64,000 nt of DNA from Desulfobacterales bacterium (GTDB lineage: Bacteria; Desulfobacterota; Desulfobacteria; Desulfobacterales; UBA5852), in assembly GCA_963674755.2 (NCBI GenBank), contig CAXXVS010000003.1:928001-992000 (forward strand). The letters run 5' to 3'. How positions within the stretch are numbered: the stretch's first letter is position 1; every line of letters starts with the position of its first letter. The notes under the pieces are model-generated. The model was given only the letters and a program-made list of their open reading frames with translations. It had not been told where the DNA came from and did not search any database. Positions 4,410 to 21,140 of this stretch are shown piece after piece. Position numbers and translations under genes: made by a program.

Positions 4410-4571
4410 TTACCGTCCTTTCCATTTCGTTGCGAGGCGTCGGGCCGGAGGGATCGTCCACCCGGCGCCCATGACAGGCTGAAGGCGACCGGCAACGGGT
4501 GTCGCAGCGGATCGCCTTCAGGATGGGGCCAGGGGGCGACTATTCCCCCAGGCGGGTTTTACGGTTTGCGA

Positions 4572-7289
4572 TCAGGCTTGCAGGCCGGCCAGCACCTTTT
4601 CCGGCAGGGCCGGCAGTTTGGTGATGCGGACACCGCAGGCGTTATAGATGCCGTTGATCACCGCCGCGTGGGGGCTGGTCAAGGGCATTTCACCCACACC
4701 GCCGGCGCCGAAGGGGCCGTCCTTGCGGGGGGTTTCCACATAGATCAAATCCATTTCGTCGGGGATTTGTTTGATATAGGGGAAGCCTGCACCGGCCAGG
4801 GTGGAATGCTTCTTGAGATCTTCGTAATCCTCGGTCAGGGCCAATCCGATGCCCTGGGCCAGGCCGCCGTACATCTGGCCGTCCACCACCAGGCGGTTGT
4901 TGATCTTGCCGATGTCGGATACCAGGGTCATCTTCTCTACCATGGTTTTACCCGTAGCGACCTCCACGGCCACCTCGGCCATGAACACGCCGTACATATA
5001 GACGGAAAAAGGAGACCCCTGGCTGTTCTCGTCACAATTGGTGGCCGGGGCCGTCCATTGCCCGGTGTAGTGGACCGGGATGTTGTCGGCCTGCATTTCG
5101 GCGTAGCTGCGATAGCTGCCGTCGGGTTTTTTCATGGCGGCCACCAGGGCCTCCGCGCCGTTGCGAATGGCCTGGCCGGTCATGACCTGGGAACGGCTGC
5201 CACCGGCGGGTCCCGAATTGGGGGCTTTGCTGGTGTCATTCATCACCAGGCGAATCCGGTCGGGTGTGATCCCGGTCACCCGCAGGGCCTCGTGGGCGAC
5301 CCCCAGCGCACCGGCGTCGGCGCCCTGGCCGTGATCCTCCCAGCAGTTATAGACGGTGACCGTATCGTCGGCATTGAGTTCCACCCAGGCCTCGGAGGCA
5401 TCCGGACCGTCCAGTCCGCAGCCATAAACGCCAACGGAGATGCCGACGCCTTTTTTGATTTCGGCGCTGGAAGCAGCTTTGGCCTTGTCCAGGGCGGCTT
5501 TGTATCTGGGCCGCAGGATGTCGAGCATCTCCGGCAGGCTGTAGACTTCCGGCGCCTGGCCGGTGGGGGTTGTGGAGCCCTCGCGGTAGACGTTCTTGTA
5601 GCGCAGCTCCAGGGGATCGATAGCGAGCTTTTCCGCCAGCTCATCCATGAGCACTTCGGAAGCGAACTCGCTCTGGGGGGAGCCGTAGGCCCGGAAGGCG
5701 GATCCCCAGGCGTGGTTGGTGCATACGGTGCGGCCCTCGCCGCGAATGTGAGGGATGTCGTAGCCGGCGCCCATGAACTGGGTGCCGCGCAGGGTCAGCA
5801 GGTCGCCGAATTCCGAGTAGGGGCCGTGATCCACGCTGTAGTCGGTTTCCATGGCCAGCAACTTGCCCTCTTTATCCGCGGCGAAACGCATGTTCATGAA
5901 GAAGGGCGAGCGCTTGCCGGTATAGGCCATCTGCTGCTGGTAGTCGTATTTGAGGAAGCAGGGTCTTCCGGTGGCCATGCAGGCTGCCCCCACCAGGGCT
6001 TCCATGGTGGGGCTGAATTTATAGCCGAAGGTGCCGCCCGCCGGATTCTGCACCATGACCAGGTTCTCCAGCTCGACCCCCAGGCCGGGAGCGATCATGG
6101 CGGCGTGCAGGTGCAGGCCGATGGACTTGGAATGAATCACCAGTTTGCCGTCGTCGTCCTTGTAGGCAAAGCCCACATCCGGCTCGATGGGCATGTGGGG
6201 CTGACGGCCGACATAGAAGTCATCCTCCACCACGGCATCCGCCGCGGCGAAAATAGGCCCGGTTTCATCCCCCTTGGCGATTTTCTGGACATAATAGACG
6301 TTGGGCGTGCCCGGATGGATCTCGATGGCATCGTCGGCCATGGCGGCCGGGGCGCTCATGTATTCGGGCAGCGGTTCCAGATCCACCTTGACCTTGGCCG
6401 CGGCCGCCTTGGCATTGGCCTCGCTGTCGGCACAGACGATGGCGATGGCGTCGCCGTATTGGAAGACCTTGCGGTCGCACAAGATAGGCCGGTCCCAGCC
6501 GTCGCCCTTGTTGGAGGGGAAGGTGATCAGGCCGCTGATACGGTTTTTGCCGGGTACATCCTTGTGGGTGACCACCTTGAAGACCCCGGGCATTTGTTCG
6601 GCCTCGGCCGTGTCGATGCCGTTGATGTCGGCATGGGAGACCGTGGCCTGGACCAGGGCCAGGTGAAGACGGTCGTCGGGCAGTTTGAGGCCCAGGTCCG
6701 CTCCGTAGTCCAGAGTGCCGGTCACTTTGGCGATGGCGCTGGGCCGGGGGTATTTGGTGCCCCAGATGCGGCCGTCGGCCGGAATCTTGAAATTGAGTTC
6801 GTCGGCCGCCATTTCACCGCGCAGCACTTTGGCCGCATCCATCACGGCATCCACCAGTGGTTTGTAGCCGGTGCAGCGGCAGGCATTGCGGTGCTTCTGA
6901 AACCAGTCACGGACGTCGTCGCGGGTGGGCGACGGAGTTTCATCCAGCAGGGCCTTGGCTGAGACGATGAACCCGGGGCTGCAGAAACCGCACTGGGCGC
7001 AGCCATGGGCCATCCAGGCCAGTTGCAGGGGATGCAGACCGGTGGGCGTGCCGATGCCCTCGATGGTGGTGACATGGGCGCCGTCGGCCACCCGGGAGAG
7101 CTTGGTGATGCAGGAGCGCACCAATTTGCCGTCCAGGATGACATTGCATGCCGCGCATTGACCCTGACCGCAACCGATTTTCGTACCGGTCAGGCCAAGT
7201 TGTTCCCGGAGCACGGTGGCCAGCGCGTCATCGGCCGATGCAATCAAAACCTTGGGGGTGCCGTTGAGGATAATGTTGCGTTTAATCAT
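4572..7289 (-). CDS. mop: Molybdopterin-dependent aldehyde oxidoreductase (Mop type), paralogue 2
   Basis: Start reassigned to ATG 7289 (MIKRNIILNG; GGGGAGGG RBS); 905 aa; same motif set, GVGEMP. Confidence 0.95.
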   Translation of the reverse strand: MIKRNIILNGTPKVLIASADDALATVLREQLGLTGTKIGCGQGQCAACNVILDGKLVRSCITKLSRVADGAHVTTIEGIGTPTGLHPLQLAWMAHGCAQCGFCSPGFIVSAKALLDETPSPTRDDVRDWFQKHRNACRCTGYKPLVDAVMDAAKVLRGEMAADELNFKIPADGRIWGTKYPRPSAIAKVTGTLDYGADLGLKLPDDRLHLALVQATVSHADINGIDTAEAEQMPGVFKVVTHKDVPGKNRISGLITFPSNKGDGWDRPILCDRKVFQYGDAIAIVCADSEANAKAAAAKVKVDLEPLPEYMSAPAAMADDAIEIHPGTPNVYYVQKIAKGDETGPIFAAADAVVEDDFYVGRQPHMPIEPDVGFAYKDDDGKLVIHSKSIGLHLHAAMIAPGLGVELENLVMVQNPAGGTFGYKFSPTMEALVGAACMATGRPCFLKYDYQQQMAYTGKRSPFFMNMRFAADKEGKLLAMETDYSVDHGPYSEFGDLLTLRGTQFMGAGYDIPHIRGEGRTVCTNHAWGSAFRAYGSPQSEFASEVLMDELAEKLAIDPLELRYKNVYREGSTTPTGQAPEVYSLPEMLDILRPRYKAALDKAKAASSAEIKKGVGISVGVYGCGLDGPDASEAWVELNADDTVTVYNCWEDHGQGADAGALGVAHEALRVTGITPDRIRLVMNDTSKAPNSGPAGGSRSQVMTGQAIRNGAEALVAAMKKPDGSYRSYAEMQADNIPVHYTGQWTAPATNCDENSQGSPFSVYMYGVFMAEVAVEVATGKTMVEKMTLVSDIGKINNRLVVDGQMYGGLAQGIGLALTEDYEDLKKHSTLAGAGFPYIKQIPDEMDLIYVETPRKDGPFGAGGVGEMPLTSPHAAVINGIYNACGVRITKLPALPEKVLAGLQA

Positions 7290-7353
7290 GTTCCCTCCCC
7301 TCGTATGTGTTGTTAAAAGCACATGCAAATCAGGCGTGTTCAGGGCTTCGGCC

Positions 7354-8379
7354 TCAATTTTTGCCGAAGCCGCACAGGGGGTAGCGGCAGGTGGGGCAGC
7401 CGGAGCAGAATCCCCCGTGTCCCAGAGCGGCAATGGTGTCGCGTGTAACAGGTTCGCCGGCCAGCAGCCGCGGGATGAGCAGGTCGAAGATGCTGGTGCG
7501 GTAATACATGACACAACCCGGCAGGCCGGCTACCGGCACGTCGCCGATATAGGCCAGCATGAACATGGCCCCCGGGAAGACCGGGGCGCCATAGGTGATG
7601 ACCTCACCGCCCGCGGCCCGGATGCTGGCCGGGGTCTGATCGTCCGGGTCGACGGACATGCCGCCGGTGACCATCACCATTTCAGCCCCTTCGGCGATCA
7701 GCTCCCGAATGGCGTTGACGGTCATTTGCCGGTCGTCGGAAACCAGAATCTGACGCGTCACCTGGCAGCCGAGGTCCTTGAATTTCTTTTCGACGACCGG
7801 ACCGAAGGCATCCTTGATCCGTCCATGGTAGACTTCGCTGCCCGTGGTCACGATGCCGACCCGGCAGGCGTTGAAGGGTTTCACCTGGATGATGGGGCGG
7901 GATGCGGCGCAGATCTGCGCGACCCGCCGGATGGGGGCTTCTTCGATGATCAGGGGCACAACCCGCGTGCCGGCCAGCGGTTGCTCGGCTTTGACCGGCT
8001 GATGGCTGTGCAGGGTGGCAAAGGCAATGTCATCGATGGAATTGATACGGGTCAGGGCCTCCACGTCCACGACGAGCAGACCGTCGGTCTCGGCAATCAG
8101 GTTCACGCGCCCTTCCGAGGGATCGCTCAACCGGATTCCCGGGCCGGCCGCTGCTCGTGCCAAGCGTTCGGCCGCTTCGTTTTCATGCAGCATGCCCGGT
8201 TCCAGATCGAGGACATAGATGTGTTCCTTGCCGATCCTGAGAAATTCGGGGATCTCTTCGGCGCGGATGATGTGCCCTTTTTTAAAGGCGGGGCCTTTTT
8301 CCCGGCCCGGAATGATGCGGGTGATATCATGGGCCAGCACGCAGCCGACCGCTTCCTGGATAGGGATGGCATGAATCAT
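7354..8379 (-). CDS. Molybdopterin-binding protein (MoeA/MogA-like domain, C-terminal Cys cluster)
   Basis: Start ATG 8379; LAHDITRI, VTTGSE, TGGMSVDPDDQT, GLPGC; C-terminal CSGCPTCRYPLC; first gene of the aldehyde oxidoreductase operon. Confidence 0.85.
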   Translation of the reverse strand: MIHAIPIQEAVGCVLAHDITRIIPGREKGPAFKKGHIIRAEEIPEFLRIGKEHIYVLDLEPGMLHENEAAERLARAAAGPGIRLSDPSEGRVNLIAETDGLLVVDVEALTRINSIDDIAFATLHSHQPVKAEQPLAGTRVVPLIIEEAPIRRVAQICAASRPIIQVKPFNACRVGIVTTGSEVYHGRIKDAFGPVVEKKFKDLGCQVTRQILVSDDRQMTVNAIRELIAEGAEMVMVTGGMSVDPDDQTPASIRAAGGEVITYGAPVFPGAMFMLAYIGDVPVAGLPGCVMYYRTSIFDLLIPRLLAGEPVTRDTIAALGHGGFCSGCPTCRYPLCGFGKN

Positions 8380-8603
8380 TTTAATATCAATTCCGACATG
8401 ATGTGAGGTGTTTCTGACAAGCGCCCAGGGGGAAAATGCCAAATGGTCTGGTTTTGCGATAGCCGCGCAACAATGACCTTGAGCGGATATCGGCAAGCTT
8501 GCCCAGCCTTCCGGCATCTTGATTCTGATTTATCGTATAGGGGGAGATATATGTCAATAATGATATCAAACAGGACAAAAAAATTTCCCCTCCTCCCGGG
8601 CGG

Positions 8604-9048: not shown

Positions 9049-9507
9049 TCATGTGGTACGGACGAAGAGGTGCTTGGCATCCCGGGGCGACTCCACCACC
9101 CGCTGAATTTTCTCCTCGATGTCCTTTTTCCGGAGCTCATCCTTGGTTTCCCAGGCCCCTTCGATCTTTTCGACCAGTTCGCTGATCTGGCAGGGTTTGG
9201 TCAGGTAGTCGTAAGCGCCCAGCTTGATCGCTTCCAGGGCCGAGTCGATGGAACCATGTCCGGTCAGAATCAGGGTTTGGGTAAAAAGCCCCAGTTTCTT
9301 GATTTCCTTCAGAGTGGTCAGCCCGTCCATCCCCGGCATTTTAAGGTCCAGCACGACCACGTCGAAATCTTCGTTCTGCAGCGCCCGGATGGCTTCCGCG
9401 CCGCTGTTGACCGCTGTGGAGCGATAGCCGCGGGCATCCAGCAGGGTTTCCATGTTGCGGGTGAAAATGACTTCATCATCCACCAAGAGTATTTTTGATC
9501 CGATCAT
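9049..9507 (-). CDS. Single-domain response regulator (REC) with short charged C-terminal tail
   Basis: LLVDDE, VLDLKMP (phospho-Asp), LTGHG, LTKP; AAAGGAGG RBS. Confidence 0.92.
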   Translation of the reverse strand: MIGSKILLVDDEVIFTRNMETLLDARGYRSTAVNSGAEAIRALQNEDFDVVVLDLKMPGMDGLTTLKEIKKLGLFTQTLILTGHGSIDSALEAIKLGAYDYLTKPCQISELVEKIEGAWETKDELRKKDIEEKIQRVVESPRDAKHLFVRTT

Positions 9508-9574: not shown

Positions 9575-11380
9575 TCATGCGGCCTGCTCCACCGGGATCA
9601 CATGATCACGTGTTGCGGTTTTAGCGTCCGACGACCGTACGGGCAGCCGGATGATAAAATCGGTTCCCTGGTCGACGACGCTCTTCACCTGAATCCGCCC
9701 CCCCAGCCCCTTGATGATGCTGTAACAGATGGACAGCCCCAGGCCCGTTCCCCGCCCCGTAGGCTTGGTGGTGAAGAAGGGATCGAAGACCTTGGACAGG
9801 ACCTCTCCCGACATGCCGGAACCCGTGTCCGAGACCACGATCTCCACGGTTTCGTCGGCTTCCAGGTAGGTGGTGCTGATGGCCACGGATCCATATTGTT
9901 TGCCCTCGTGGGCGTCGATGGCGTTGGTGATGAGGTTCAAAAAGACCTGCTGGAGCTGGGAAATGTCCGACAGGATCGGCGGTACCTCCGGGGACAGCCG
10001 TTCGAAAAAGGTAATGCCGGAAGACTTGGCCTCCCGTTCCATCAGGTCGACGATCTCGCTGATGAAGGCGTTGATATCCACCGTGTCGATGACGGACTGG
10101 GTGCGGCGGGAAAAGCGGAGCAGATTGTGGGTGATGCGCTTGCAGCGCTGGATCTGAACGTCGATCTGGTTCAGGGAATCGTCCAGCTGGGCGCCGAAGG
10201 CCGAATCGAGATGGTCGACCCTTTGGCAGGCGTCCAGCAAAATCTCCCGTTCCGTCGAAATGATGGCCAGGGGATTGTTGATTTCATGGGCCACCCCCAC
10301 CGAGAGTTCGCCGATGGAGGCCATTTTGCTGGCCTGCATAAGCTGACGATTCAAGGTTTCGGCCTTGGCGTCCCGGCGTTTTACCAGGTTCAGCATGTGG
10401 CGGGTGACCAGAACCGTGGCCCCCAGGATGGTGACGGCGCTGATGAGCAGGAAGATCAGCACCGAATAATTGGCCCGGTTCTCGGTTGCAAAGGCTTCGT
10501 CGTAATCCTGCCGGACGACCAGCATCCATTGGGGGGTCTCCAGCCAGGCCGTGGCAACGATCTGGCGCACGGTGCGTTCTCCATTGAAACCGGCGTCAGC
10601 GGCCTCCTGCCGCACCTGGATGCCGGGATGAATGTCGCCCACCTTTATGGCGGCATTTTCCATGATCCGGCCGCTATAGCGGGAAGTGGTCTGGTAGACG
10701 CCTTGCGGGTTGACAAGGAAGACTTCGCCGGTGCGGCCGATCATGACATTCTCCACCAGCGCCCGGAAGGCCTCCGTATCCACGGTGGCCCGCAGGATCC
10801 AGGGACCTGCCGCGTCATTGCCTTTGACCGCGATGATGAAGTGCGGTTCGCGGCGGAACCCCATGAACATGTCGCTGATGAAAATTCCCTTCTCCATGAC
10901 CTGGCCGAACCAATGCGTCGTGCGATAGTTTTTATCCAGCAGGTCGTAGGGCCCTACATACGCCAGATGCCGGCCTTCGCCGTCGATGACCCCGAGATCG
11001 GTCACGTTCCAGTGCTCCTGATTGAACAGGTCGAAAACGGTCCGCAACCGCCCGGGCTGAACCAGATCCTGACGGTCATGGGTCTGGGCGATGAGTTCCA
11101 GTTTGGCGCGATGTTCCTTCAAGAACAATTGGATGACTTTGCGATGGTGCTGGACCTCGTTGCGGAAGGCGGTCATGATGCGCGTCTCGGCTGAACGCTG
11201 GTAGCGATGGCTGATCACCCACCCCACCAGGAGCAGGGGCACCACCGAGCAGACCAGCGTCAGGAGGACAAACCGTTTGAAAAGCCGTTTGTAGCGATGG
11301 CTCTGATCGCTATCGGAAACCGTCGTGCTGGCAGGATCGGAAACGTTTGCAGGTAAGTCCGGCATGCGGCCTCCTTGCAT
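9575..11380 (-). CDS. Membrane sensor histidine kinase (periplasmic Cache-like domain)
   Basis: Two TM segments; H-box GVAHEINNPL; N-box QQVFLNLITNA; DTGSG; FFTTK; GTGLGL. Start could be 11365. Confidence 0.92.
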   Translation of the reverse strand: MQGGRMPDLPANVSDPASTTVSDSDQSHRYKRLFKRFVLLTLVCSVVPLLLVGWVISHRYQRSAETRIMTAFRNEVQHHRKVIQLFLKEHRAKLELIAQTHDRQDLVQPGRLRTVFDLFNQEHWNVTDLGVIDGEGRHLAYVGPYDLLDKNYRTTHWFGQVMEKGIFISDMFMGFRREPHFIIAVKGNDAAGPWILRATVDTEAFRALVENVMIGRTGEVFLVNPQGVYQTTSRYSGRIMENAAIKVGDIHPGIQVRQEAADAGFNGERTVRQIVATAWLETPQWMLVVRQDYDEAFATENRANYSVLIFLLISAVTILGATVLVTRHMLNLVKRRDAKAETLNRQLMQASKMASIGELSVGVAHEINNPLAIISTEREILLDACQRVDHLDSAFGAQLDDSLNQIDVQIQRCKRITHNLLRFSRRTQSVIDTVDINAFISEIVDLMEREAKSSGITFFERLSPEVPPILSDISQLQQVFLNLITNAIDAHEGKQYGSVAISTTYLEADETVEIVVSDTGSGMSGEVLSKVFDPFFTTKPTGRGTGLGLSICYSIIKGLGGRIQVKSVVDQGTDFIIRLPVRSSDAKTATRDHVIPVEQAA

Positions 11381-11457
11381 CTATTCGCTGGGTTGCTCTG
11401 CAGCATTGATCCCCGGCTTTGATCGAACCGGGACTCTCCAAGATAGGGGTATCCAAA

Positions 11458-11472
11458 TCAAGAAATGTGCCA
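11458..11472 (-). promoter_or_regulatory. sigma54 (-24/-12) promoter for the HK-RR-ykvA genes
   Basis: Minus strand reads TGGCACATTTCTTGA (TGGCAC-N5-TTGA, -12 variant). Confidence 0.65.
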
Positions 11473-11564
11473 AACAGCGCGGTGCTCAACATTTTATTTG
11501 TTCCCATAATTTTAGATGGTTAGTGTTTTTCATAGTGGGTTGGGAGCGTTCCTGGCAGGGCCGC

Positions 11565-11583
11565 TGTCCACTGGCGGATGACA
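11565..11583. promoter_or_regulatory. Putative upstream activator sequence TGTC-N11-GACA
   Basis: TGTCCACTGGCGGATGACA, 92 bp upstream of the sigma54 promoter. Confidence 0.6.
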
Positions 11584-11652
11584 GGGGTGTCTCTCTGCCG
11601 GGCGGCGGACCCCGGCGGAAGCGGCCGGCGTCCGGGCTTCCGGGGAACGCCA

Positions 11653-13914
11653 TCAGACCAGCCGGGGCCAGAAGGGCTTCTGGACTTCAAGCACCATGGC
11701 GATGGCGGAGGGGAGATGGGCGGCCGGCGTGTTTCCGGGGGGGGCCGCATCGCGGCGTCCGGAACCGGTGATGCACAGCTCCTGAAGAAACCGCAGTCCG
11801 CATTCTTCGATGCCTTTGACGCTGTAGCCGCCCTCCAGGATAAAGGCGATGCGCCCGCGGCAAACCAGCTCGGCCATTTGGATCAGCAGGGCGGTGAGGG
11901 TGCCATAGCCGGCCGGAGACACCTGCATGCCCCCCAGCCGGTCATGCCGGTAGAGATCGAACCCCAGGGAAACCAGGATGAAATCGGGTTCGAATTGGCG
12001 GGCCAGGGGCACGATAACGCGTCGGACGGCGCAGATGAAATCCCGGTCTCCGGCGCCTTTGGGCAGCGGAATATTGACCGTGAACCCTTTTCCCGGTCCG
12101 CGGCCGACCTCCCCCAGGTTCCCGGTGCCCGGATAGGCCGGGAAACGATGGGTGGAGACATACAATACGGTGTCGTCTTCATAAAAAGCCGTTTGGATGC
12201 CGTTGCCGTGGTGGGCGTCCAGATCGACGATCATGATTCGGTGCAGGCCATGGTTGTTTTGCAGATACCGCGCGGCCAGAGCGGCATTGTTGAGCAGGCA
12301 GAAACCCATGGCCCGGTCCGGTTCGGCGTGGTGCCCGGGCGGGCGTACGGCGGCCATCCCACGGGTTGCCCGGCCGTCGCAGATCCCGTCCAGCAGGTGA
12401 AAAACGCCTCCCACGGCCAGACAGGCCACTTCCCATGAGCGGGCCGTGGTCTGGGTGTCCAGATCCAGGGTGACCAGTTGCCGGCCGGCGGTTCGTTCCA
12501 ACCGGTCCAGGTAGTCGCTGGTATGGATCCAGAGCAGTTGCTCGCGTTCGGCCGGTGCCGCCATCAGCGAATGCCAGCGACCGGCAACGCTCGGGTGGGC
12601 CAGTGCCCGTTGGAAGGCCTCGAACCGTTTGGGGCTTTCCAGGTGAAACACATGCTGCAGATGCAGGGCGAAGCGCGGATCGTCGACCACCAGGATGGTG
12701 GTTTGGGTATCGGGTTCCGTGCCGGCGATTTTCACCCGGCAGGCCCGGGTGGCGAAATCGATAAGCGATGCGGCTTCGGGTATCCGGCGTTCGTTTTTCA
12801 GCAGAAGCGCCAGGGCCGTGGTCGCCGGATAAGGTTGGCGGTCGCACATGAGGCAGTGCTTGATAAACGCCAAACGCCATGGACGGCGGAGGTTGTGATC
12901 CGGTTTGCATAGGGCCTTGAGGGTGTTCTCGATGTAGCGTTCCAGCTTGGGCCGCACCCGACCGATGGGCGTCCGTTCATCGTCGGCCATGTCGGCAATG
13001 GCGGACAACAGATAGCCGCGCGGGGTTTTCAGGACGAACCGGCACAGCCGCTGTTCCTGGAAACCGCAGTCCCGATAAAATTGCTGGGCGCCCACCTCGC
13101 CGTCCAGAAAAATATGACGGACCTGGGGGAGCAGGGCCTGCCACAGCATCCAGGCACCCGCCACCAAAAAGGTGCCGACCCCCTGAGGGGGCTGCTGGAT
13201 ATCCTCCTGGTGCGGCATGCGCCGGGCAATATAGCGGATTTCAAGACGGGTATTGGCGACTTGCCGGTGCAACTCGAGCTTGACGAGCCCCCAAATGTCC
13301 TGCTGCACGATGCAGGCGAAGATCCAGGGCAAGGTCCCGTCCGTCCAGCTCTCCAGAACAAACCGGACGTCGAAGAATTCGAAGCGCTGCGCGGCCATTT
13401 GGGACAGGGTTGCCCGGTTGAGGGGCAGGGGAATGAAGCGGGCCGGTTGGCCGCCGGCCAGGTGGCCGCTGAAATGCGGTCCGTCGGCGCGGAAGTCCGG
13501 CATGCGCAGGGCGGCGTCCAGATCGGCGGGCACCTTCGGCAGACGCCGCAGCTCATGGTTCACAAGGGCGGCGGCCCCGGCCTGGCGCATATCGCCGGCC
13601 AGCTGCCGTACGTTGCCGGATATCCAGGCGGTGGTGCAGGCGTGCTTTTGCCGGAGTTCCCCCAGTTTGAAGACCAGCGATTGTTCCAGGATGGGGATGC
13701 CGCGGGCCACAAAGGCGGTTTTGGGGATGTCCACCCGTTCCCCGTCGAAATAGTAATGGAAAGAACGCGTACCCGCCACCTGATCACGGGCCTGTTCAGA
13801 AGCCGGGACCGTAATGCGGTGTGCATCGAACAGGCCCCTGAGTCCTAAACCGGCGGCCGGATCAACGGCGTTGACAGCGGCGATGGCCGCCTGGAGATGT
13901 TCGGGCTTGATCAT
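11653..13914 (-). CDS. Fusion protein: uncharacterised N-terminal region + GNAT-like acetyltransferase domain + Zn-dependent HDAC/AcuC-family deacylase
   Basis: C-terminal RPPGHHA, GFCLLNN, DLDAHHGNG, YPGTG, GFDLYRHD, LEGGY (full HDAC catalytic set). Central LEIRYIA...QGVGTFLV...HIFLDG...AQQFYRDCGF matches GNAT motif A/B. Confidence 0.85.
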   Translation of the reverse strand: MIKPEHLQAAIAAVNAVDPAAGLGLRGLFDAHRITVPASEQARDQVAGTRSFHYYFDGERVDIPKTAFVARGIPILEQSLVFKLGELRQKHACTTAWISGNVRQLAGDMRQAGAAALVNHELRRLPKVPADLDAALRMPDFRADGPHFSGHLAGGQPARFIPLPLNRATLSQMAAQRFEFFDVRFVLESWTDGTLPWIFACIVQQDIWGLVKLELHRQVANTRLEIRYIARRMPHQEDIQQPPQGVGTFLVAGAWMLWQALLPQVRHIFLDGEVGAQQFYRDCGFQEQRLCRFVLKTPRGYLLSAIADMADDERTPIGRVRPKLERYIENTLKALCKPDHNLRRPWRLAFIKHCLMCDRQPYPATTALALLLKNERRIPEAASLIDFATRACRVKIAGTEPDTQTTILVVDDPRFALHLQHVFHLESPKRFEAFQRALAHPSVAGRWHSLMAAPAEREQLLWIHTSDYLDRLERTAGRQLVTLDLDTQTTARSWEVACLAVGGVFHLLDGICDGRATRGMAAVRPPGHHAEPDRAMGFCLLNNAALAARYLQNNHGLHRIMIVDLDAHHGNGIQTAFYEDDTVLYVSTHRFPAYPGTGNLGEVGRGPGKGFTVNIPLPKGAGDRDFICAVRRVIVPLARQFEPDFILVSLGFDLYRHDRLGGMQVSPAGYGTLTALLIQMAELVCRGRIAFILEGGYSVKGIEECGLRFLQELCITGSGRRDAAPPGNTPAAHLPSAIAMVLEVQKPFWPRLV

Positions 13915-13920
13915 GGCCCA

Positions 13921-14808
13921 TCATTCCGCAAGCGGTTCACCGGCATCGACATGGGCATCGTCCAGGTAAATCAGTACATCCCGCAGCCGAACCACCCCCA
14001 GGACCCGCCGGTTCGCATCGGTTACCGGCAATGTGCGAAACCCCTTGTCCATCATAAGCGCGGCAACTTCCCGCAACGGGGTTTGAGGCGTCACGGCAAT
14101 GGTTTCCCGCTGCATCACCGCGGCCACGGTTTTATCCGGCAGCCATTGGGGATTGGCGGAAAGTTCCTGCCAGGTGGGCATGACGCCCGTGTCGGGCCGC
14201 GCGACCTGGCGGACGATGTCCTGTTTACTCAAATGGCCGCTCAGGCAGCCCTCGGCATCCACGATGAAAAGGGTTTCGCCCGCCATCCGGGGCAGTCGGT
14301 GGTTGAAAACGGAGAAGGCTTCCAAGAGGGGATCGGCATCCTCGATCCGGCGAAAGGCCTCCAGGATCAATTCCCCGGCGGTCGAACGCGGCCACAGGAT
14401 GGGACGGCGTCGAATTTGTCCGATGGTACAGGCCACCTCCAATTTGGCCACCAGGTCCTCGATGCTGCAGGGTTTCATGAGATAATCGAAAGCCCCCTGC
14501 CGGATGGCCTCGATCCCGGTTTCCAGGGAGGCATGACCGGTCAGCATGATGACCGGCGGTGGCGAGGCCTTTTGCTGGATACGGCCCAGGGCGGTCAGGC
14601 CGTCCATCAGGGGCATGCGGATATCCAACACCAGGACATCAAAAGGCTGGTGGTCGATCAATTCCAGGGCCCGGCGGCCGTCACCGGCCGTGGCGACCTG
14701 GAAATGGTGTCTTTCCAGAAGCCTGCGCATCTGCGTGCAGAACCGCTCCTCATCGTCCACCAGCAGCACCCGCCGGGGCGGCGTGGTTTTTAGCGAGGCC
14801 TGTTCCAT
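13921..14808 (-). CDS. Response regulator with REC + tandem CBS domains
   Basis: LLVDDE, VLDIRMP, LTGH, KP; then two CBS-like repeats (LFIVDAEGCLSGHLSKQD; TLPVTDANRRVLGVVRLRD); 6-bp gap to the deacetylase fusion. Confidence 0.9.
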   Translation of the reverse strand: MEQASLKTTPPRRVLLVDDEERFCTQMRRLLERHHFQVATAGDGRRALELIDHQPFDVLVLDIRMPLMDGLTALGRIQQKASPPPVIMLTGHASLETGIEAIRQGAFDYLMKPCSIEDLVAKLEVACTIGQIRRRPILWPRSTAGELILEAFRRIEDADPLLEAFSVFNHRLPRMAGETLFIVDAEGCLSGHLSKQDIVRQVARPDTGVMPTWQELSANPQWLPDKTVAAVMQRETIAVTPQTPLREVAALMMDKGFRTLPVTDANRRVLGVVRLRDVLIYLDDAHVDAGEPLAE

Positions 14809-15045
14809 GGCATAGTCCTTTCCGGGATCCAGAGGATCATCCCACAGCCTTCAATCCGCCAATGGCGGACAAGGGGTTAATTCCCTGCCGCTTACGGCGT
14901 CACATGGCCTTCATCGATACCCCGCTGTCTTGCGGCGGGGCAGTTCATTTTTGCCGGCACCATCTCAAGCAAGGCCCTATCTGGTGCATGGCCCCCTCCT
15001 GGTCGATGCCCGTCGCATACCACCCGTAGACACAAATCCGGCGTT

Positions 15046-15170: not shown

Positions 15171-15186
15171 TGGCACTCGGTTTGCA
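15171..15186 (+). promoter_or_regulatory. sigma54 promoter for the CBS micro-protein gene
   Basis: TGGCACTCGGTTTGCA, canonical GG-N10-GC. Confidence 0.75.
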
Positions 15187-15294
15187 GTCGCGTTAGATCA
15201 ACGTCGGCGCGCCGCCGATCACCTTCCCCCTGATGCGGCGTGAGGCCTGGACCACATGACAGCCCACCTGACGCAGACGATCTTTCCCGGGGGC

Positions 15295-15519
15295 ATGATG
15301 GACACCCGTACCCTGAGCAATGTCCGCGAGATCCTTCTTCCGTATTCCGGTGACCTGCCGTTGACGCCCGCGGTCAGCATCGAGGATTCGATCTCCAGAG
15401 TCATCGAGGTCATGGTCCGGCACAATGTACGCATCCTGCCCGTATTCCGCGATAAGCGCCCCGTAGGGCAGGTGCGTATGCAAGATGCGTTTGCCATCCT
15501 GGGCATCCGGATGCCCTGA
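15295..15519 (+). CDS. Small single-CBS-domain protein (~74 aa)
   Basis: VSIEDSISRVIEVMVRHNVRILPVFRDKRPVGQVRMQD is a CBS repeat; start ATG 15295/15298 (track start 15256). Confidence 0.75.
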   Translation: MMDTRTLSNVREILLPYSGDLPLTPAVSIEDSISRVIEVMVRHNVRILPVFRDKRPVGQVRMQDAFAILGIRMP

Positions 15520-15575: not shown

Positions 15576-17024
15576 CTATACCGGAGAGGCATCCATCTCC
15601 GGCGCATCGGCTTCCCCGTCGGCCAGTTCTTTATAGTCCTCGGTCACGAGTCCCGCTTCTTTCATGAGACGGTGCAGGTACTGGCGCTGGATGCCTGCCT
15701 TCAGGGCGGCCCGGCTCACATTGCCGCCATTGTCACGCAGCAGATGATCGATATACTGCCGGTGAAAGATCGCGATCATCTGCTCCTTGGCATCCTTGAA
15801 TGCCAGCTGACGAAGGTCGGGCGGGAGGGTATAGGGCCCCTCCGGCGCTTCCGGGGCTTGGTCAAGGAAAAGATCGGCGGTTCGCAGCGTCGCGGTCCGG
15901 CAGAAAATGACGCCCCGTTCGATGATATTTTCCAATTCCCGCACGTTGCCGGGATAATCAAGCGTCATGAGCCGTTGCATGGCCCGCGGGCTGATGGCGG
16001 TAATGGCCTTTTGGTTGAGGACGGCATATTTTTTTAGGAAGTGCTGACCGAGCAGAGGAATATCGCCACGCCGGGCCGCCAGGGGCGGCAATTCGATATT
16101 GATCACATTGAGGCGGTAATAGAGATCCTCCCGGAAGTTCCCCCGGGCGATTTCTTCCTTGAGGAGGCGATTGGTGGCCGCAATGAAGCGGATGTCGGCC
16201 TTGCGGGTGGCATTGCCGCCTACGGGCCGGTATTCGCCTTCCTGGAGCAGGCGGAGCATCTTGGTCTGCAGGACGGGGCTCAGGTCGCCGATTTCATCCA
16301 GAAACAAGGTGCCGCCATGGGCGTCTTCGGCCAGGCCGCGCTTGTCTTTCCAGGCGCTGGTAAAGGCGCCCTTCAGGTGACCGAAAAGTTCGCTTTCGAG
16401 CACGTTTTCCGGAATGACGGTGCAGTTGAGGGTGACGAAACGCTTCGTGCGGCGGCGGCTATGGTCATGCAAGGCTTTGGCCACCAATTCCTTGCCGGTT
16501 CCGCTGGGGCCGGTGATGAGGACGGTGCCCTGGGTGGGGGCGACCTGGCGGATGCGTTCGAAAATGTCGTGCATCACCGGCGTCGTCCCCAGCAGCGCGG
16601 CAAACCCGTTCCGCTGGCCCAAGGCCTCCCGCAGGGCGTGATTTTCACGGCTGACGGTCTGAAAACTCATCACGTTTTCGATGGTCACCAGGATGCGTTC
16701 GCGGCGGAAGGGTTTGGTGATGAAATCGCAGGCCCCCTTGCGGGTGGCTTCGACCGCCGTATCGATGGTCCCGAAGGCGGTCATGACCACCACCGCCAGG
16801 GCCGGGTCGACCGACTTGACCTTTTCCAGCAGGCGCAGGCCGTCCATTCCGGGCATCTTGAGATCCGTTATCACCATATCGAAACCGCCGGTCTTGACCT
16901 TTTCCAAGGCGTCCAGGGGGTCATGGGTGGTGACCACTTTGTGGCGGGTTTCTTCGCTGATGATGCGCTCGATCAACAGCAACATATCCCGTTCATCGTC
17001 CACGATCAGGATGCTTCCTCTCAT
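15576..17024 (-). CDS. sigma54-dependent response regulator (REC-AAA+-HTH, NtrC family)
   Basis: IVDDE/TDLKMP; Walker A GPSGTGKE; ESELFGH-GAFTSA; LFLDEI; FREDLYYRL; PGNVREL; Fis-like HTH. Confidence 0.95.
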   Translation of the reverse strand: MRGSILIVDDERDMLLLIERIISEETRHKVVTTHDPLDALEKVKTGGFDMVITDLKMPGMDGLRLLEKVKSVDPALAVVVMTAFGTIDTAVEATRKGACDFITKPFRRERILVTIENVMSFQTVSRENHALREALGQRNGFAALLGTTPVMHDIFERIRQVAPTQGTVLITGPSGTGKELVAKALHDHSRRRTKRFVTLNCTVIPENVLESELFGHLKGAFTSAWKDKRGLAEDAHGGTLFLDEIGDLSPVLQTKMLRLLQEGEYRPVGGNATRKADIRFIAATNRLLKEEIARGNFREDLYYRLNVINIELPPLAARRGDIPLLGQHFLKKYAVLNQKAITAISPRAMQRLMTLDYPGNVRELENIIERGVIFCRTATLRTADLFLDQAPEAPEGPYTLPPDLRQLAFKDAKEQMIAIFHRQYIDHLLRDNGGNVSRAALKAGIQRQYLHRLMKEAGLVTEDYKELADGEADAPEMDASPV

Positions 17025-19156
17025 ACGGCCTCCTGCTGACGTTGGGGCAATTTTACGATGAAGGTGGTACCACTCCGCTCCCGGCCGCCTGAATCGCGGC
17101 TTTCACAGTGAATGGATCCGCCGAAGCTGGTGATGATGCCGTAACTGACAAACAGTCCCAGCCCGGTTCCCTCGCCTTCGGGTTTGGTCGTGAAAAAGGG
17201 TTCGTAGATGCGGTCCAGGTCGGCCTCGGGGATGCCGCGGCCGGTGTCCGATACCTTGACGACCGCATTCCGGCTGCTTTTGTCGAAAGATGCGCGGATG
17301 GTCAGCAGGCCGCCGTCGGGCATGGCCGCCACGGCGTTGTTCATGAGATTGAGAAAGACCTGCTGAAGCTGCCGGCAGTCGCCCCGCACGGCGGGCAGCC
17401 GACGGGCGATGTCGGTTTTGAGGGTGACGGTGCGTCGTTCAATGCTGTGGCGGGCCACCTTGATGATTTCCTCCAGACAGTGATGCAGATCGGTGCTTTC
17501 CTCGGACACCTTGCGGTCCCGGGCGAAGCTGAGCAGATTGTCGACAATTTCTTTGCAGTGCAGTCCCTGCCGTTCGATGATTTTCAAGTCGTCATAGGCT
17601 TGGCTGCCCGGCGGCTGCTTGCGAACCAGCAGGTCGCAAAACCCCAGGATGACGCCCAAGGGGTTGTTGATCTCATGGGCCACCCCGGCCGCCAGGGTCC
17701 CCAGGGCGGCCAGTTTTTCGGTGGCGATCAGGTTGCGCTGCAAGGTTTTATTCTCGGTGATATCCCGTGCGATGCACAGGGCGGCATGGATTTCGCCGGC
17801 TTCGTTTTTCAACGGCATATAGTTGGCATTGAGCCATACCGCAGGATCCACGGACCGGATTTCGATTTCTTCGCGGACACTGCGCCCGGTGGCGAAAACC
17901 TGTTGAACGGCCTTGATGTTGCGCTGCCCCACATCGTCGCTCAGCAGATCGGCCAGGGGGCGGTCCACTAGGTTGTCGGGATCGCTGCCGAAGAAATGGG
18001 CCGTGTAGCTGTTGACGGATTTCAAGCGGACGGCGGCATCCAGGGTGAAGATAAAGTCCTCGGCGCTCTCGATGAGCAGACGGTATTTTTCCTCCGAGCG
18101 TTTCAGCGCCTGGGTGCGGACTGCCACCAGTTTTTCCAGGCGACGGGAGAAACGGATTTCGAACAGGAACAAAGCCGCGGCCGCCGCTGCCACGACCAGG
18201 ATCATCAGGGCCTGGAGCATCAGCTGCCAGCGATGGATCTTGCCGACGGTGTCTGCGATTTCGTGGGTCGGGGCGACCACCGCGACACTCCAAAACTGGC
18301 GGGGTGTCTGGGCAACGTGAATGGGGCAATAGGCGATCAGCTTGGCAATTTCGCCGGTGAGCCCCCTGTGCCAGCCCGATTGATAGGTTCCGGTGCCTTC
18401 CCGGCCTTGCAGCATCTCTTCCTTCTGGATGTGATCGATTTGGACGAAGTCCAGATCGGGATAGGTTTCCTGACGTGCTTCGAAGACGCTGCGGCCGATA
18501 TAATCCGTGAAGGGATGATAGAGGAAACGGCCCTGATCGTCGATGATCCATGCATAGCCGCTGTTGCCGGAGCGAATGTTCTTGAGGAGCGGGGTGAGAA
18601 ACCAGGCCAGGTCGACCTTCAGCAGGAGCAATTGCTCCCGGCGGCGGTCCAGCGCGGTTGCCAGGGACAGGATCATCCGGGAACCGCTTACGCGGGGGCG
18701 GACCACGCTGATTTCACCCGGTTCCGGCAGCGTTGCCATGGCCGGCATGGGCCGTGCCGAGGCGGCCGATTGGACGGCGGAACCATAAGCATACACCCAT
18801 AGCGTATCGGCGCTCCGGTTCCAGACCTGAATTTCCATGACCCCGGCCTTGCCCAATCGCTCCAGTTCGATTGGCAGGTAGGCCTGCTGTTCGGCCGGAC
18901 CCGGCGGCGCCGCCGTGATCCTTACGGCCAGTTGCAGCAGCTCTTCCTCCAGGATACCGAGGGATTGTTCCACCAGCATCTGGGTGCTGCGCGCTACGGC
19001 GAGCTGCTCCTGGTTGAACTGATCGCTGACGAGCATGACCATCTGTCGCCCGAATCGAATCTGTACCACGGTGGCCACCAACAGGGTTACGGCCGCGGCG
19101 GCCACGATAATCCAGGCGGGCCCCTGTCGGGGATTCATGTGTGCGATCGTGTCCAT
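17021..19156 (-). CDS. Cache/PAS sensor histidine kinase
   Basis: TM, SGYAWIIDDQGRFLYHP (Cache), TM, PAS, GVAHEINNPL, FFTTKPEGEGTGLGL; 4-bp ATGA overlap with the sigma54 regulator. Confidence 0.93.
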   Translation of the reverse strand: MDTIAHMNPRQGPAWIIVAAAAVTLLVATVVQIRFGRQMVMLVSDQFNQEQLAVARSTQMLVEQSLGILEEELLQLAVRITAAPPGPAEQQAYLPIELERLGKAGVMEIQVWNRSADTLWVYAYGSAVQSAASARPMPAMATLPEPGEISVVRPRVSGSRMILSLATALDRRREQLLLLKVDLAWFLTPLLKNIRSGNSGYAWIIDDQGRFLYHPFTDYIGRSVFEARQETYPDLDFVQIDHIQKEEMLQGREGTGTYQSGWHRGLTGEIAKLIAYCPIHVAQTPRQFWSVAVVAPTHEIADTVGKIHRWQLMLQALMILVVAAAAAALFLFEIRFSRRLEKLVAVRTQALKRSEEKYRLLIESAEDFIFTLDAAVRLKSVNSYTAHFFGSDPDNLVDRPLADLLSDDVGQRNIKAVQQVFATGRSVREEIEIRSVDPAVWLNANYMPLKNEAGEIHAALCIARDITENKTLQRNLIATEKLAALGTLAAGVAHEINNPLGVILGFCDLLVRKQPPGSQAYDDLKIIERQGLHCKEIVDNLLSFARDRKVSEESTDLHHCLEEIIKVARHSIERRTVTLKTDIARRLPAVRGDCRQLQQVFLNLMNNAVAAMPDGGLLTIRASFDKSSRNAVVKVSDTGRGIPEADLDRIYEPFFTTKPEGEGTGLGLFVSYGIITSFGGSIHCESRDSGGRERSGTTFIVKLPQRQQEAV

Positions 19157-19351
19157 GGCGTGGTTAAGGGCAGCAAATCATGTGCCAGGGAAAAGGCGCC
19201 GCCCGGGGGTATTCCTACCCGGGAAAAAAGCCGTTGCGCGGGCGGCTGGGGCCGGGGAGGCGTGCCTCAGGCGCAACGGCCTGTCAGTTTTTTTTACTGA
19301 TTGTAAATCAACATCGCCGGCATTCGCCTGCCAGACGATGGGGGTGTGGTA

Positions 19352-19888
19352 TCAGACGCCCCAAAAGGCGATGATCACAAACGCCAGGCAGGCCGCGCAT
19401 ACCGTGTGGCTTACGACGCCTTTTTTAAGGGGATGGAAATGCGCTTCGTTGCGCCGATGACCGTCCGGGCAGATATATTCCACGACTGTCCGGCCGCTGC
19501 GCTTGGACACGTGGCGGATCCGCCTGACCGGCGCGCCGCAGAAACCGTGCGCGTCCTTTGAGCGGGCCTGACAGGTCATGCGGTTGCCCGCGACGAGGCT
19601 GGTCAGGTTGTAGATCCAGTTCCAGGTGATGGCCCCGATCAGAAGCGTGAGCAGTATGATGATGACATGGCGCTGGGTGACCCCCAGGGACGATAGGGAA
19701 GCGCCAATATTGGCGGGGGTCAGGGGGCCTTCCACCGTTCCGAAAAGCCCCAGGTAATAAAGGAAGAAGCTGACCCCCATGACGATCAGGGTCAGGCCGA
19801 AGTTGTGCAGACGGCTACGCGCGAAGCCATGGGAAGGCCGGCCGGTTCCGGTCGTATCCATCGTCGGGGGGGGATATGATTTGCTCAT
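19352..19888 (-). CDS. Hypothetical membrane protein with a Cys/His-rich loop
   Basis: AGGAG RBS before ATG 19888; three hydrophobic segments; loop with C...C...CPDGH. Confidence 0.7.
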   Translation of the reverse strand: MSKSYPPPTMDTTGTGRPSHGFARSRLHNFGLTLIVMGVSFFLYYLGLFGTVEGPLTPANIGASLSSLGVTQRHVIIILLTLLIGAITWNWIYNLTSLVAGNRMTCQARSKDAHGFCGAPVRRIRHVSKRSGRTVVEYICPDGHRRNEAHFHPLKKGVVSHTVCAACLAFVIIAFWGV

Positions 19889-19930
19889 CGCGGGGCATCT
19901 CCTGTTTGGTCTCAAGGGCGTGGATCAAAT

Positions 19931-19973: not shown

Positions 19974-21020
19974 TCAGGCACCGGCCAATTTGTGCATGAT
20001 GTCCGGGATGATTTTGTAGAAGGCATAGGCCGTCAGTACGAGGCAGTAGGCCGGCACCACGATCTTCCACAGCTTTTCGGGAAAGACGCGTGTCATGTAG
20101 GGCGCCGCCACGGCCGAGAACATGGTGGCCAGCATGAAGCTGGGCAGCAGGATGTAGTCGATCTGCACCCCGCTGGTCAGCATGCCGATCCAAATCAGCA
20201 CCGCGATGGTGCTCACCGTGCCCTCGCTGATGGCGGTAACCGCCAGCATGCTCTTGACCGGTACGCCGGCCAGCAGACCGCCGATGGTCACCACCGGCCC
20301 GTAGCCGCCGCCCCCCACGCCCTTGTTGAACCCGGCCAGAGCGGCCCACAGAACCATGCGTTTGGGGCGATAGGGTCGGTCCTTCCTGGACTGGAACAAT
20401 GAAACCGCGCCCATCATGAGCAGCAGCAATGCCACGTAGAGTTTGATCCAGATTTTACCCACATGGAAGATCTTGTAGACCCCGATGATGGCCGTGAGGT
20501 TGAACAAAACGCCGGTTCCGGCGATGATGAGCCAGAGCTTGACGGTTTCGCTCATGGGTGAAAATTTCCATTCCACGTTTTCGAATTCCCGATGCAGGAA
20601 GGCCCCCACCAGGCCGGCCGCGCCCTGCTGGATCATGACCACCGGCACGATCTGTTTGGGATCGAAGCCCACCATGAGCAGCAGCGGGGTCAGGGCCGTG
20701 CCGAAGCCCATGCCGGCCGAGGCGTCCATGAATTCGAAGAAGGCGGCAATCAATACCACGCTCCAGACGATGCTCCACTCGTTGCCCATAAGCCCGTGCT
20801 CCACGACATACTTGGAGGGCATGCGTACGGTGGCCTCGAAGGGATTGCCGGCCAGCCAGATGCCCACGAAAAAGAGCACGAAGAACACGGCGATGCCGCC
20901 GCCGGCCGCCTTGACGTGGTTCCACTCGGGAATCAGGCGCTCCAATATGGTTTTCTTTTTGCCTTCGAGGTCCCGGGCGACCTCCCATCCTGCCACTCTT
21001 TCATTGGTTCCGTTGCTCAT
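19974..21020 (-). CDS. Sulfite exporter TauE/SafE (TSUP) family permease
   Basis: MDASAGMGFGTALTPLL and NKGVGGGGYGPVV repeats; many TM helices; AAGGAGG RBS. Confidence 0.88.
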   Translation of the reverse strand: MSNGTNERVAGWEVARDLEGKKKTILERLIPEWNHVKAAGGGIAVFFVLFFVGIWLAGNPFEATVRMPSKYVVEHGLMGNEWSIVWSVVLIAAFFEFMDASAGMGFGTALTPLLLMVGFDPKQIVPVVMIQQGAAGLVGAFLHREFENVEWKFSPMSETVKLWLIIAGTGVLFNLTAIIGVYKIFHVGKIWIKLYVALLLLMMGAVSLFQSRKDRPYRPKRMVLWAALAGFNKGVGGGGYGPVVTIGGLLAGVPVKSMLAVTAISEGTVSTIAVLIWIGMLTSGVQIDYILLPSFMLATMFSAVAAPYMTRVFPEKLWKIVVPAYCLVLTAYAFYKIIPDIMHKLAGA

Positions 21021-21125: not shown

Positions 21126-21140
21126 ACAAGCGGCATGCCA
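21126..21140 (-). promoter_or_regulatory. sigma54 promoter for the tauE operon
   Basis: Minus strand TGGCATGCCGCTTGT; degenerate box TGTCCACTGCCAGTATCCA (minus strand, 21232-21250) 91 bp upstream. Confidence 0.6.

Follow-up and report, generated by a model that had tools for sequence, protein, structure and literature searches.

The closest described counterpart of the locus reported here is the AcuA-AcuB-AcuC/AcsA system of Bacillus and Geobacillus, in which a GNAT acetyltransferase and a Zn deacetylase are accompanied by AcuB, a protein with a CBS pair and an ACT domain. AcuB inhibits AcuC by blocking access to its active site, and in the accessible text of PMC13121692 this runs via the ACT domain and requires M189. 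The 64,000 nucleotide (nt) stretch of DNA analysed here (the window) comes from a Desulfobacterales bacterium (GenBank assembly GCA_963674755.2, contig CAXXVS010000003.1, positions 928,001 to 992,000) and carries on its minus strand a fusion gene (nt 11653–13914, ATG start, 753 amino acids (aa)) that combines an N-domain, a GNAT fold, a helical domain and a Zn deacetylase. The analysis confirms that one protein of a sulfate reducer joins a GNAT fold to a deacetylase with intact catalytic residues. The fusion would be the enzymatic core of an acetylation switch that Desulfobacterota carry in a sigma54/two-component cassette. Its deacetylase half would remove acetyl groups, probably from protein lysine, the GNAT half would bind acetyl-CoA and acetylate the same target, and the direction would be set by a receiver-CBS protein encoded just upstream.

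Compared with AcuABC, writer and eraser are here mostly on one chain, the deacetylase is class-II-like, and the surroundings are a sigma54/two-component/TSUP cassette with acs adjacent in only 7/57 loci. The CBS-bearing partner consists, by Pfam, of a receiver and CBS domains only, and is modelled to bind the deacetylase mouth via a linker; AcuB needs a Met, and the model here puts Leu or Met138 into the channel. The listed Foldseek, VIA and hidden Markov model (HMM) matches of the GNAT fold do not include AcuA, with no direct pairwise comparison made. In its working the proposed system resembles AcuA/AcuB/AcuC, but it stands outside that system on AcuB domains and acs linkage, and it does not belong to the Pat enzymes either. 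An acetyltransferase opposed by a Zn deacetylase poses the problem of a futile cycle, to which AcuB is a recent answer from Bacillus; the present family would offer a second, independent solution.

Other described systems share parts of this arrangement. HdaH-type cluster 1 deacylases (Graf et al. 2024, PMC11532494) have the same double His, GFC, Asp-His-Asp, RPP and EGGY motifs, whereas the fusion adds a 400-aa N-module and the subclade marks L425, L480, L654 and R659; 'Desulfo' occurs nowhere in the main text of that paper, and its available passages mention no GNAT fusion. Pat, PatZ and SlPatA share the GNAT fold and an invariant Glu starting beta4, E225 here being comparable by spacing to E809 in the accessible part of bioRxiv 10.1101/2024.11.12.623305. 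Unlike Pat, which lacks a deacetylase, the fusion has an insertion ahead of GxG, unrelated flanking helical domains and no NDP-forming acyl-CoA synthetase domain by Pfam or fold match in aa 1–402. PanZ/PanM (PMC4410942, in part) is likewise a GNAT fold that ties in Z-score with catalytic GNATs and has a narrow distribution bound to one partner enzyme; it is a lone small domain, whereas the present protein has additional domains and a larger number of conserved acidic residues, and its model demonstrates no interface between module and HDAC. The DASS sulfate-transporter cluster of Desulfobacteraceae also has Cache kinases, receivers and CBS proteins, but a deacetylase, an acetyltransferase or TauE is not mentioned in the text of PMC11887813 (figures not covered). 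The literature searched (most subscription papers lie outside it) yielded neither a description of this family nor a case of a deacetylase inhibited by a receiver protein.

Domain organisation and the two enzyme folds

Four parts can be distinguished in the fusion. The N-terminal, mostly helical domain (aa 1–126, nt 13537–13914) is defined by the AlphaFold2 model and conservation and belongs to no known family. It is followed by the divergent GNAT fold (aa ~146–298, nt 13021–13479), recognised from the model, fold matches and alignment, and by a helical domain (aa 299–395, nt 12730–13020) which, by the model and locus comparison, remains with the GNAT in split forms. The class-II-like Zn deacetylase (aa 406–753, nt 11653–12699), identified by Pfam, PDB matches and alignment, carries RPPGHH, GFC, D566/H568/D653 and EGGY697 together with the subclade marks H-L-E (425) and R659. 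An earlier sequence-only reading of the window had placed a GNAT-like fold at nt 13030–13330; the fold is real, but that range covers its second half only, the start lying at aa ~146 (nt ~13479). The same reading took about 190 N-terminal aa to be unrecognisable, whereas the unrecognised parts are aa 1–126 and the helical domain at aa 299–395. For the N-domain no usable Atlas match was obtained, and a PDB sequence search gave three weak matches (E 0.49–0.64); A10, G22, L25, I34 and E121 are invariant in it (42 rows). NCBIfam holds no family covering the fusion.

The GNAT half is barely visible to Pfam. The fusion sequence alone gives a trace only (Acetyltransf_7, E 0.11), and 21 of 28 family members match Acetyltransf_10 and 21 of 28 Acetyltransf_7 at E <= 1, all E-values being weak (best 5.7e-5). 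An AlphaFold2 model of aa 1–402 from 28 sequences is, however, well defined (predicted local distance difference test (pLDDT) 88.3, predicted template modelling score (pTM) 0.88), and modelling the central region in this way, a check the sequence-only reading had proposed, returned a GNAT fold. The top Foldseek match is 7l1k, Naa30 (E 5.2e-4), and the top VIA match is 6c30 (Z 12.8, root-mean-square deviation (rmsd) 3.1, 158 residues aligned), with nearly all of the 50 VIA matches listed being acetyltransferases or GNAT folds by title. Model secondary structure, VIA and Foldseek together give the core fold beta1-alpha1-alpha2-beta2-4-alpha3-beta5-alpha4-beta6, and an Atlas search with aa 1–400 returned GNAT-like leads only, all under 0.9. 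The VIA ties among GNATs include TacT toxins, the SlPatA GNAT (4u5y_A, Z 12.0, rmsd 2.9, 140 aligned) and PanZ (4cry_B), and because so many tie, the fold alone reveals no function.

Conservation was judged over 51 rows, the window plus 50 of 57 related GTDB loci, 7 being left out as truncated or frameshifted. Within the module Q172, F181, R184, G209, E225, G247, W255, W258, E273, F279, Y280, G284 and F285 are invariant (51/51) and G245 is kept in 50, so that the GxG and FY..GF motifs, whose loss in homologues would have spoken against the sequence-only reading, are conserved. Q172, F181 and R184 lie in alpha1. D271 is present in 44/51 rows, with Glu in three more. A weak HMM alignment to Schizosaccharomyces pombe Naa30 (E 0.012) covers D271, E273 and Y280, which by residue spacing may be equated with E118, E120 and Y130 of yeast Naa30, where E118 is described as the base and Y130 as the acid (PMC7608589, in part). 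By this alignment and spacing the fold has a GNAT-type general-acid Tyr on alpha4 (Y280) and acidic base candidates near beta4/beta5 (E273, E225, D271). Three features count against a working acetyltransferase. Motif A, defined as (Q/R)-x-x-G-x-(G/A) (PMC11254643), is non-canonical, since its first position (aa 242) is P in 20, V in 8, A in 6 and R in 6 of 51 rows, with no conserved Q/R; a variable insertion of about 7 residues precedes GxG relative to PatZ spacing; and at its start the motif-B helix falls 3 residues short of that in Naa30. We nevertheless consider it likely that the GNAT half is catalytic.

The strongest alternative gives the GNAT a non-catalytic role, as an acyl-CoA sensor or a scaffold that tunes the deacetylase in the manner of PanZ, and makes the protein a doubly regulated eraser instead of a writer and eraser. 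The non-canonical motif A would suit such a role, as would the tie with PanZ itself (4cry_B, Z 11.7, rmsd 2.4, 119 aligned), which retains GNAT active-site residues yet leaves its partner unacetylated (PMC4410942). Sister HDACs of the same order carry N-terminal Usp-Usp domains (4/4 long ones scanned), a PilZ domain is joined to the module in one record, and the intact module never occurs among the loci without an adjoining HDAC gene, the sole apparent loner (L097) preceding an HDAC remnant. Against it stand the general-acid Tyr and three acidic residues close to the predicted acceptor face, all retained by members that are only ~30% identical, as well as the invariant alpha1 residues. The full-length AlphaFold2 model has a pTM of 0.59, compared with 0.88 for the module alone, and so demonstrates no confident packing of module on HDAC; Foldseek with that model returned HDACs only. 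A purely sensory GNAT therefore appears unlikely.

The deacetylase half is far less divergent. PF00850 matches at aa 424–710 (E 6.5e-90), and G527-H528-H529, D566-x-H568, D653 and E694-G-G-Y697 are invariant in all 51 rows except at the x, in agreement with the catalytic set that had been read from the window sequence. With F538 of the GFC motif (50/51), all sequence hallmarks listed for classical Zn deacylases in the accessible text of PMC11532494 (double His, GFC, Asp-His-Asp Zn ligands and the Tyr of XGGY) are present. The best 60 of 127 PDB sequence matches are HDAC6/15/4/7/10, HDA1, HDAH and similar enzymes, with HDAC6, HDA15 and HDAH best, and on these the domain appears class-II-like and not AcuC-like. 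The Glu gatekeeper of polyamine deacetylases (PEG of HDAC10, PIS of ApaH) was not found, the sequence being R659-L660-G661 (L660 in 50/51; the L2 loop lay outside this comparison); Graf et al. tied RPP plus EGGY without this Glu to a preference for acetyl groups and to non-polyamine substrates (PMC11532494, in part). The deacetylase half is thus probably an active Zn enzyme, with protein acetyl-lysine as its presumed substrate class.

Both halves might alternatively act on a small amine or acetamide, either the cargo of the cassette's TauE permease or a Cache ligand, with the regulatory plug described below still gating hydrolysis. Among loci with enough flanking sequence (here and for the other cassette counts; for TauE, 8 kb upstream), TauE occurs in 34/34 and a 187-aa membrane protein in 33/35, and the substrates of TSUP proteins are unknown (PMC4641369, in part). 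The PDB matches also include HDAH-like amidohydrolases such as the propanil and dimethoate hydrolases. The cassette contains, though, no recurring catabolic or biosynthetic enzyme apart from acs (7/57) and a PPDK-like protein (near 8/57 loci), and the polyamine gatekeeper is missing. D486 occupies the substrate-backbone-binding position of HDACs and is invariant in the subclade, although the 11 outgroup HDACs share it. A protein lysine is somewhat favoured as the target, and a small-molecule substrate seems less probable again than the sensor. Only one candidate target can be named, acetyl-CoA synthetase, and its support is weak; conserved lysines across the cassette proteins pointed to no single substrate.

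The receiver-CBS protein and the predicted plug

The receiver-CBS gene (295 aa, nt 13921–14808, minus strand; identified by Pfam) stops 6 nt ahead of the start of the fusion. D18, D19, D62, T90, Y109 and K112 are present in 44/44 orthologues, giving the acidic pocket, phospho-Asp, Thr and Lys by which a response regulator is judged phosphorylatable from sequence. Two things led to the choice of this pair for complex prediction: the regulator lacks a DNA-binding output, and AcuB provides a precedent. Fusion aa 1–716 and receiver-CBS aa 12–286, one copy of each chain, gave a score of 0.68 (median of three runs), and the best of three controls gave 0.01; the score mark applied is reached by 116/157 solved and 2/215 mismatched pairs, counts that are only rough here because the alignments were self-supplied. 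The runs share at least 67% of contacts, and the pLDDT of the partner is at least 78. On the HDAC side the predicted interface lines the mouth (aa 422–425, 480, 485–486, 529, 536–538, 568, 592–603 and 660), and on the other it comprises helix 5 with the linker (aa 125–150, nt 14359–14436, minus strand; by complex prediction and alignment, with I132, P136, L138 and W139) and aa 102–107. Predicted contacts include 538–138, 568–138, 486–137 and 425–139 (fusion–partner), L138 being modelled against F538, G537 and H568.

Position 138 is Leu (40) or Met (4) and never Lys, P136 and W139 are present in 44/44 orthologues, and the linker motif P-x-L/M-W is thereby kept in all 44. It is missing from 5/5 paralogous receiver-CBS proteins of DASS loci and from 41/42 receiver-like matches in this genome. 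On the HDAC side, several interface positions separate subclade and outgroup; for example, position 425 is L/M/I in the subclade and mostly P/V in the outgroup, and position 480 is L compared with mostly H/Q. The model suggests that the linker plugs the deacetylase active site as a lysine mimic, and we consider it quite probable that the predicted plug is real. The AcuB-AcuC complex is unlikely to have served as the template, because its authors obtained no crystal.

In the proposed mechanism the linker, directly behind receiver helix 5, would lay Leu138 into the deacetylase channel and block it, and phosphorylation of D62, adenine nucleotides on the CBS pair, or both, would gate the plug by analogy with AcuB. 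Plug in would give net acetylation and plug out net deacetylation. The combination of a catalytic GNAT, a protein-lysine target and a receiver-CBS plug gated by D62 or nucleotides is held tentatively. The more specific proposition is doubtful: a receiver protein would have as its output the direct inhibition, as a pseudo-substrate, of a deacetylase that shares a chain with the opposing acetyltransferase, and phosphorylation and adenine-nucleotide sensing would flip this chain between adding and removing lysine acetylation. If true, it would connect phosphorelay and acetylation directly in bacteria, in a way that arose independently of AcuB, and two-component signalling could then steer protein acetylation. 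The prediction is precise, a four-residue receiver-CBS linker motif plugging the deacetylase, and cultured Desulfosarcina species carry the system.

Several points weigh against this combined reading. The complex was predicted without Zn, phosphate or nucleotide and with the fusion cut at aa 716, the three controls were unrelated proteins and no cousins, and solved HDAC–peptide and HDAC–inhibitor structures might have steered a hydrophobic loop into the pocket. Linker conservation is not independent support because it was fed into the complex model, and that model names no contact to the GNAT or N-domain and is silent on control of the writer. The kinase usually directly upstream of the module is missing at the window locus, the best matches in the genome being 33–36% identical compared with 50–56% between orthologues. 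Genes for acetyl-CoA synthetase lie near 7/57 loci only, all of them split and 6 in one tree branch, and none is in the window operon. In one genome (G225, 96% complete) the cassette lacks receiver-CBS, but the catalytic residues of the HDAC and the GxG and FY..GF motifs of the GNAT are retained. Its HDAC agrees with the interface consensus at 13/19 positions (mean 17.0), with three states found in none of the 51 rows, including P592G. The idea that G225 lost the interface along with the partner was set aside as weak, since the rest of the domain is also divergent (140/180, mean 157) and a locus with the partner present (L071) scores lower still (12/19).

The sequence-only reading had proposed a bifunctional acylation switch, by analogy with GlnD or RelA/SpoT, that needs an external signal to choose its direction. 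Both folds are real, under purifying selection and co-occur in 30/30 genomes; the idea of a switch is supported in part, with GNAT activity as its presumptive element. Receiver-CBS is a candidate for the signal, by modelling, and in the model acts on the deacetylase mouth only. The analogy itself needs adjusting: the halves are separate genes in 17/53 evaluable loci, and the modelled control is a separate protein, with no in-chain sensor domain, so that the system seems closer to AcuA/AcuB/AcuC than to GlnD.

The signal might also run in reverse, the deacetylase pocket holding receiver-CBS until an acetylated ligand or the acetyl-CoA state releases it, as a metabolic input to the phosphorelay through a phosphate sink or kinase control. 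Receiver residues 102–107 and helix 5 are indeed part of the predicted interface, and the cassette contains as many as three kinases, along with two receivers that lack a DNA-binding output. Turnover is the easier explanation for complete catalytic sets in both folds, and G225 retains the enzyme without receiver-CBS, which together make a reversed signal improbable.

Distribution, fusion and selection

The 57 loci comprise 36 fused (one frameshifted), 17 split, in which the HDAC gene is the next one downstream, and 4 ending at a contig edge. They share kinship, and counts over them show linkage and are no statistical test. A contig of another sequencing run covers nt 11400–14770 with 14 differing letters and no gaps, and a second contig from another run covers the whole stretch with one 1-base gap at 14873, outside the fusion gene; because contigs from other runs cross the gene gap-free, the fusion is not an assembly artefact. 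Full-length homologues are present in cultured Desulfosarcina genomes, e.g., D. alkanivorans BBO69959.1 and D. widdelii BBO76581.1. Three pairwise comparisons gave ratios of nonsynonymous to synonymous substitution (dN/dS) of 0.15–0.19 for the GNAT and 0.11–0.15 for the HDAC, and both folds are under purifying selection. Chance read-through, an assembly artefact in one genome or a decayed GNAT, for which the weak single-sequence Pfam score and the 17 split loci might speak, is thus refuted by 36 fused loci over many families, independent contigs, cultured isolates and a GNAT dN/dS below 0.2. The named Desulfosarcina homologues are annotated as 'histone deacetylase' or hypothetical only, and the label hides the GNAT in the cassette's central enzyme, as the sequence-only reading had warned.

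The N-module was found in 30 of 301 genomes of the order, and a search of the same genomes with the HDAC domain returned exactly these 30 at the top (E <= 5.3e-111; next 1.2e-105). The 187-aa membrane protein matches 28/301, all within the 30, and the CBS part of receiver-CBS also 28/301, of which 27 are within the 30; the extra one is G234, which has a cassette with the middle deleted. In a phylum-wide genome sample, matches occurred in 3/401. A first search with aa 1–400 gave 31 proteins including the query, all with an HDAC domain on record. Profile searching of 1.84 billion representatives gave 102 matches, read as the family by score and position, and no remote relatives among them; 35 are full-length modules, of which 22 include the HDAC and 13 lack it. 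A short-protein search gave 23 matches resembling fragments of the family, and 0/31 pattern matches in viral contigs were confirmed. Decayed or frameshifted cassette copies were seen at L111 (G234:C11), L097 (G151:C234) and L091. Three loci (L038, L082, L083) are labelled actinomycete, Bacteroidetes or Myxococcota, yet are near-identical to Desulfobacterales cassettes; mislabelled bins are more likely than transfer.

On a quick tree the 51 subclade HDACs lie on one side of a branch (SH-like approximate likelihood ratio test 98) from 11 outgroup HDACs. Fused and split states require 3–4 changes on it, which is compatible with a single origin and with either direction, fusion or fission. Sister to the subclade are Usp-Usp-HDAC fusions of four Desulfobacterales genomes (L104:4034-6064, L105:4385-6379, L106:3750-5957, L107:4074-6107). 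The PilZ record (P0048) is a single Logan contig with PilZ (PF07238, E 2.8e-10) ahead of the N-module and no HDAC on the chain.

Cassette, promoters and other loci

The cassette is made up of about 10 genes and occurs in sediment sulfate reducers; in the window its gene order is rearranged relative to the usual one. Pfam identifies a downstream single-domain receiver (nt 9049–9507, minus) and Cache histidine kinase (nt 9575–11380, minus; sigma54-type site 11458–11472) and, beyond receiver-CBS, an NtrC-type sigma54 activator (nt 15576–17024, minus), a Cache-PAS histidine kinase (nt 17021–19156, minus; sigma54-type site 19173–19187) and the TauE/TSUP permease (nt 19974–21020, minus; sigma54-like site near 21126–21140). 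A small single-CBS protein lies on the plus strand (nt 15256–15519; sigma54-type site 15171–15185). The 187-aa membrane protein (nt 19352–19915, minus), traced by cassette profile searches, belongs to no family and occurs only together with this cassette; its conserved C115, C126, C149 and H153 suggest a metal site. NtrC was present in 31/33 loci, receiver-CBS (within 3.3 kb upstream) in 41/42, a kinase directly upstream of the module in 38/45 and the downstream kinase in 37/47.

The sigma54-type pattern was picked after viewing the matches of the window and has a background of 1.9%. It precedes the small CBS gene in 25/33 loci, the downstream kinase in 25/39 and TauE in 19/35, compared with 0/53 ahead of the module and 0/54 ahead of HDAC; the window has no such site ahead of the receiver-CBS gene. 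From this arrangement we infer a sigma54 operon that begins with TauE and usually has the enzyme as its final gene. In all listed loci the sites ahead of TauE and of the downstream kinase have TTGA, not TTGC, at their end, whereas those of the small CBS gene are canonical. The acs genes of this genome sit elsewhere, and at L059, L065 and L081 the split pair is followed by acs and an MFS transporter as well as a second, distant HDAC on the opposite strand. In 8/57 loci there is a DASS gene no more than 10 kb away. Outside the conserved cassette, nt 1683–8517 of the window contain a tandem pair of aldehyde oxidoreductase-like molybdoenzyme genes (one of them scanned) and a molybdopterin-binding protein.

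GNAT and HDAC on one chain is not unique to this family. A second, unrelated HDAC-GNAT fusion of 750 aa is found in the same genome (L033, G000:C3, about 2355170–2357420), with two Pfam GNAT stretches and a distant HDAC. Its HDAC is 32% identical to the present one, its GNATs are canonical and detectable by Pfam, its domain order differs, and hhalign of the two GNATs gave a probability of 3%; independent origins are inferred. On the same contig (L031:706-2460, about 109900–111600) a stand-alone 324-aa HDAC is directly followed by a CBS-pair protein, an AcuC/AcuB-like arrangement in which Pfam detected no ACT domain.

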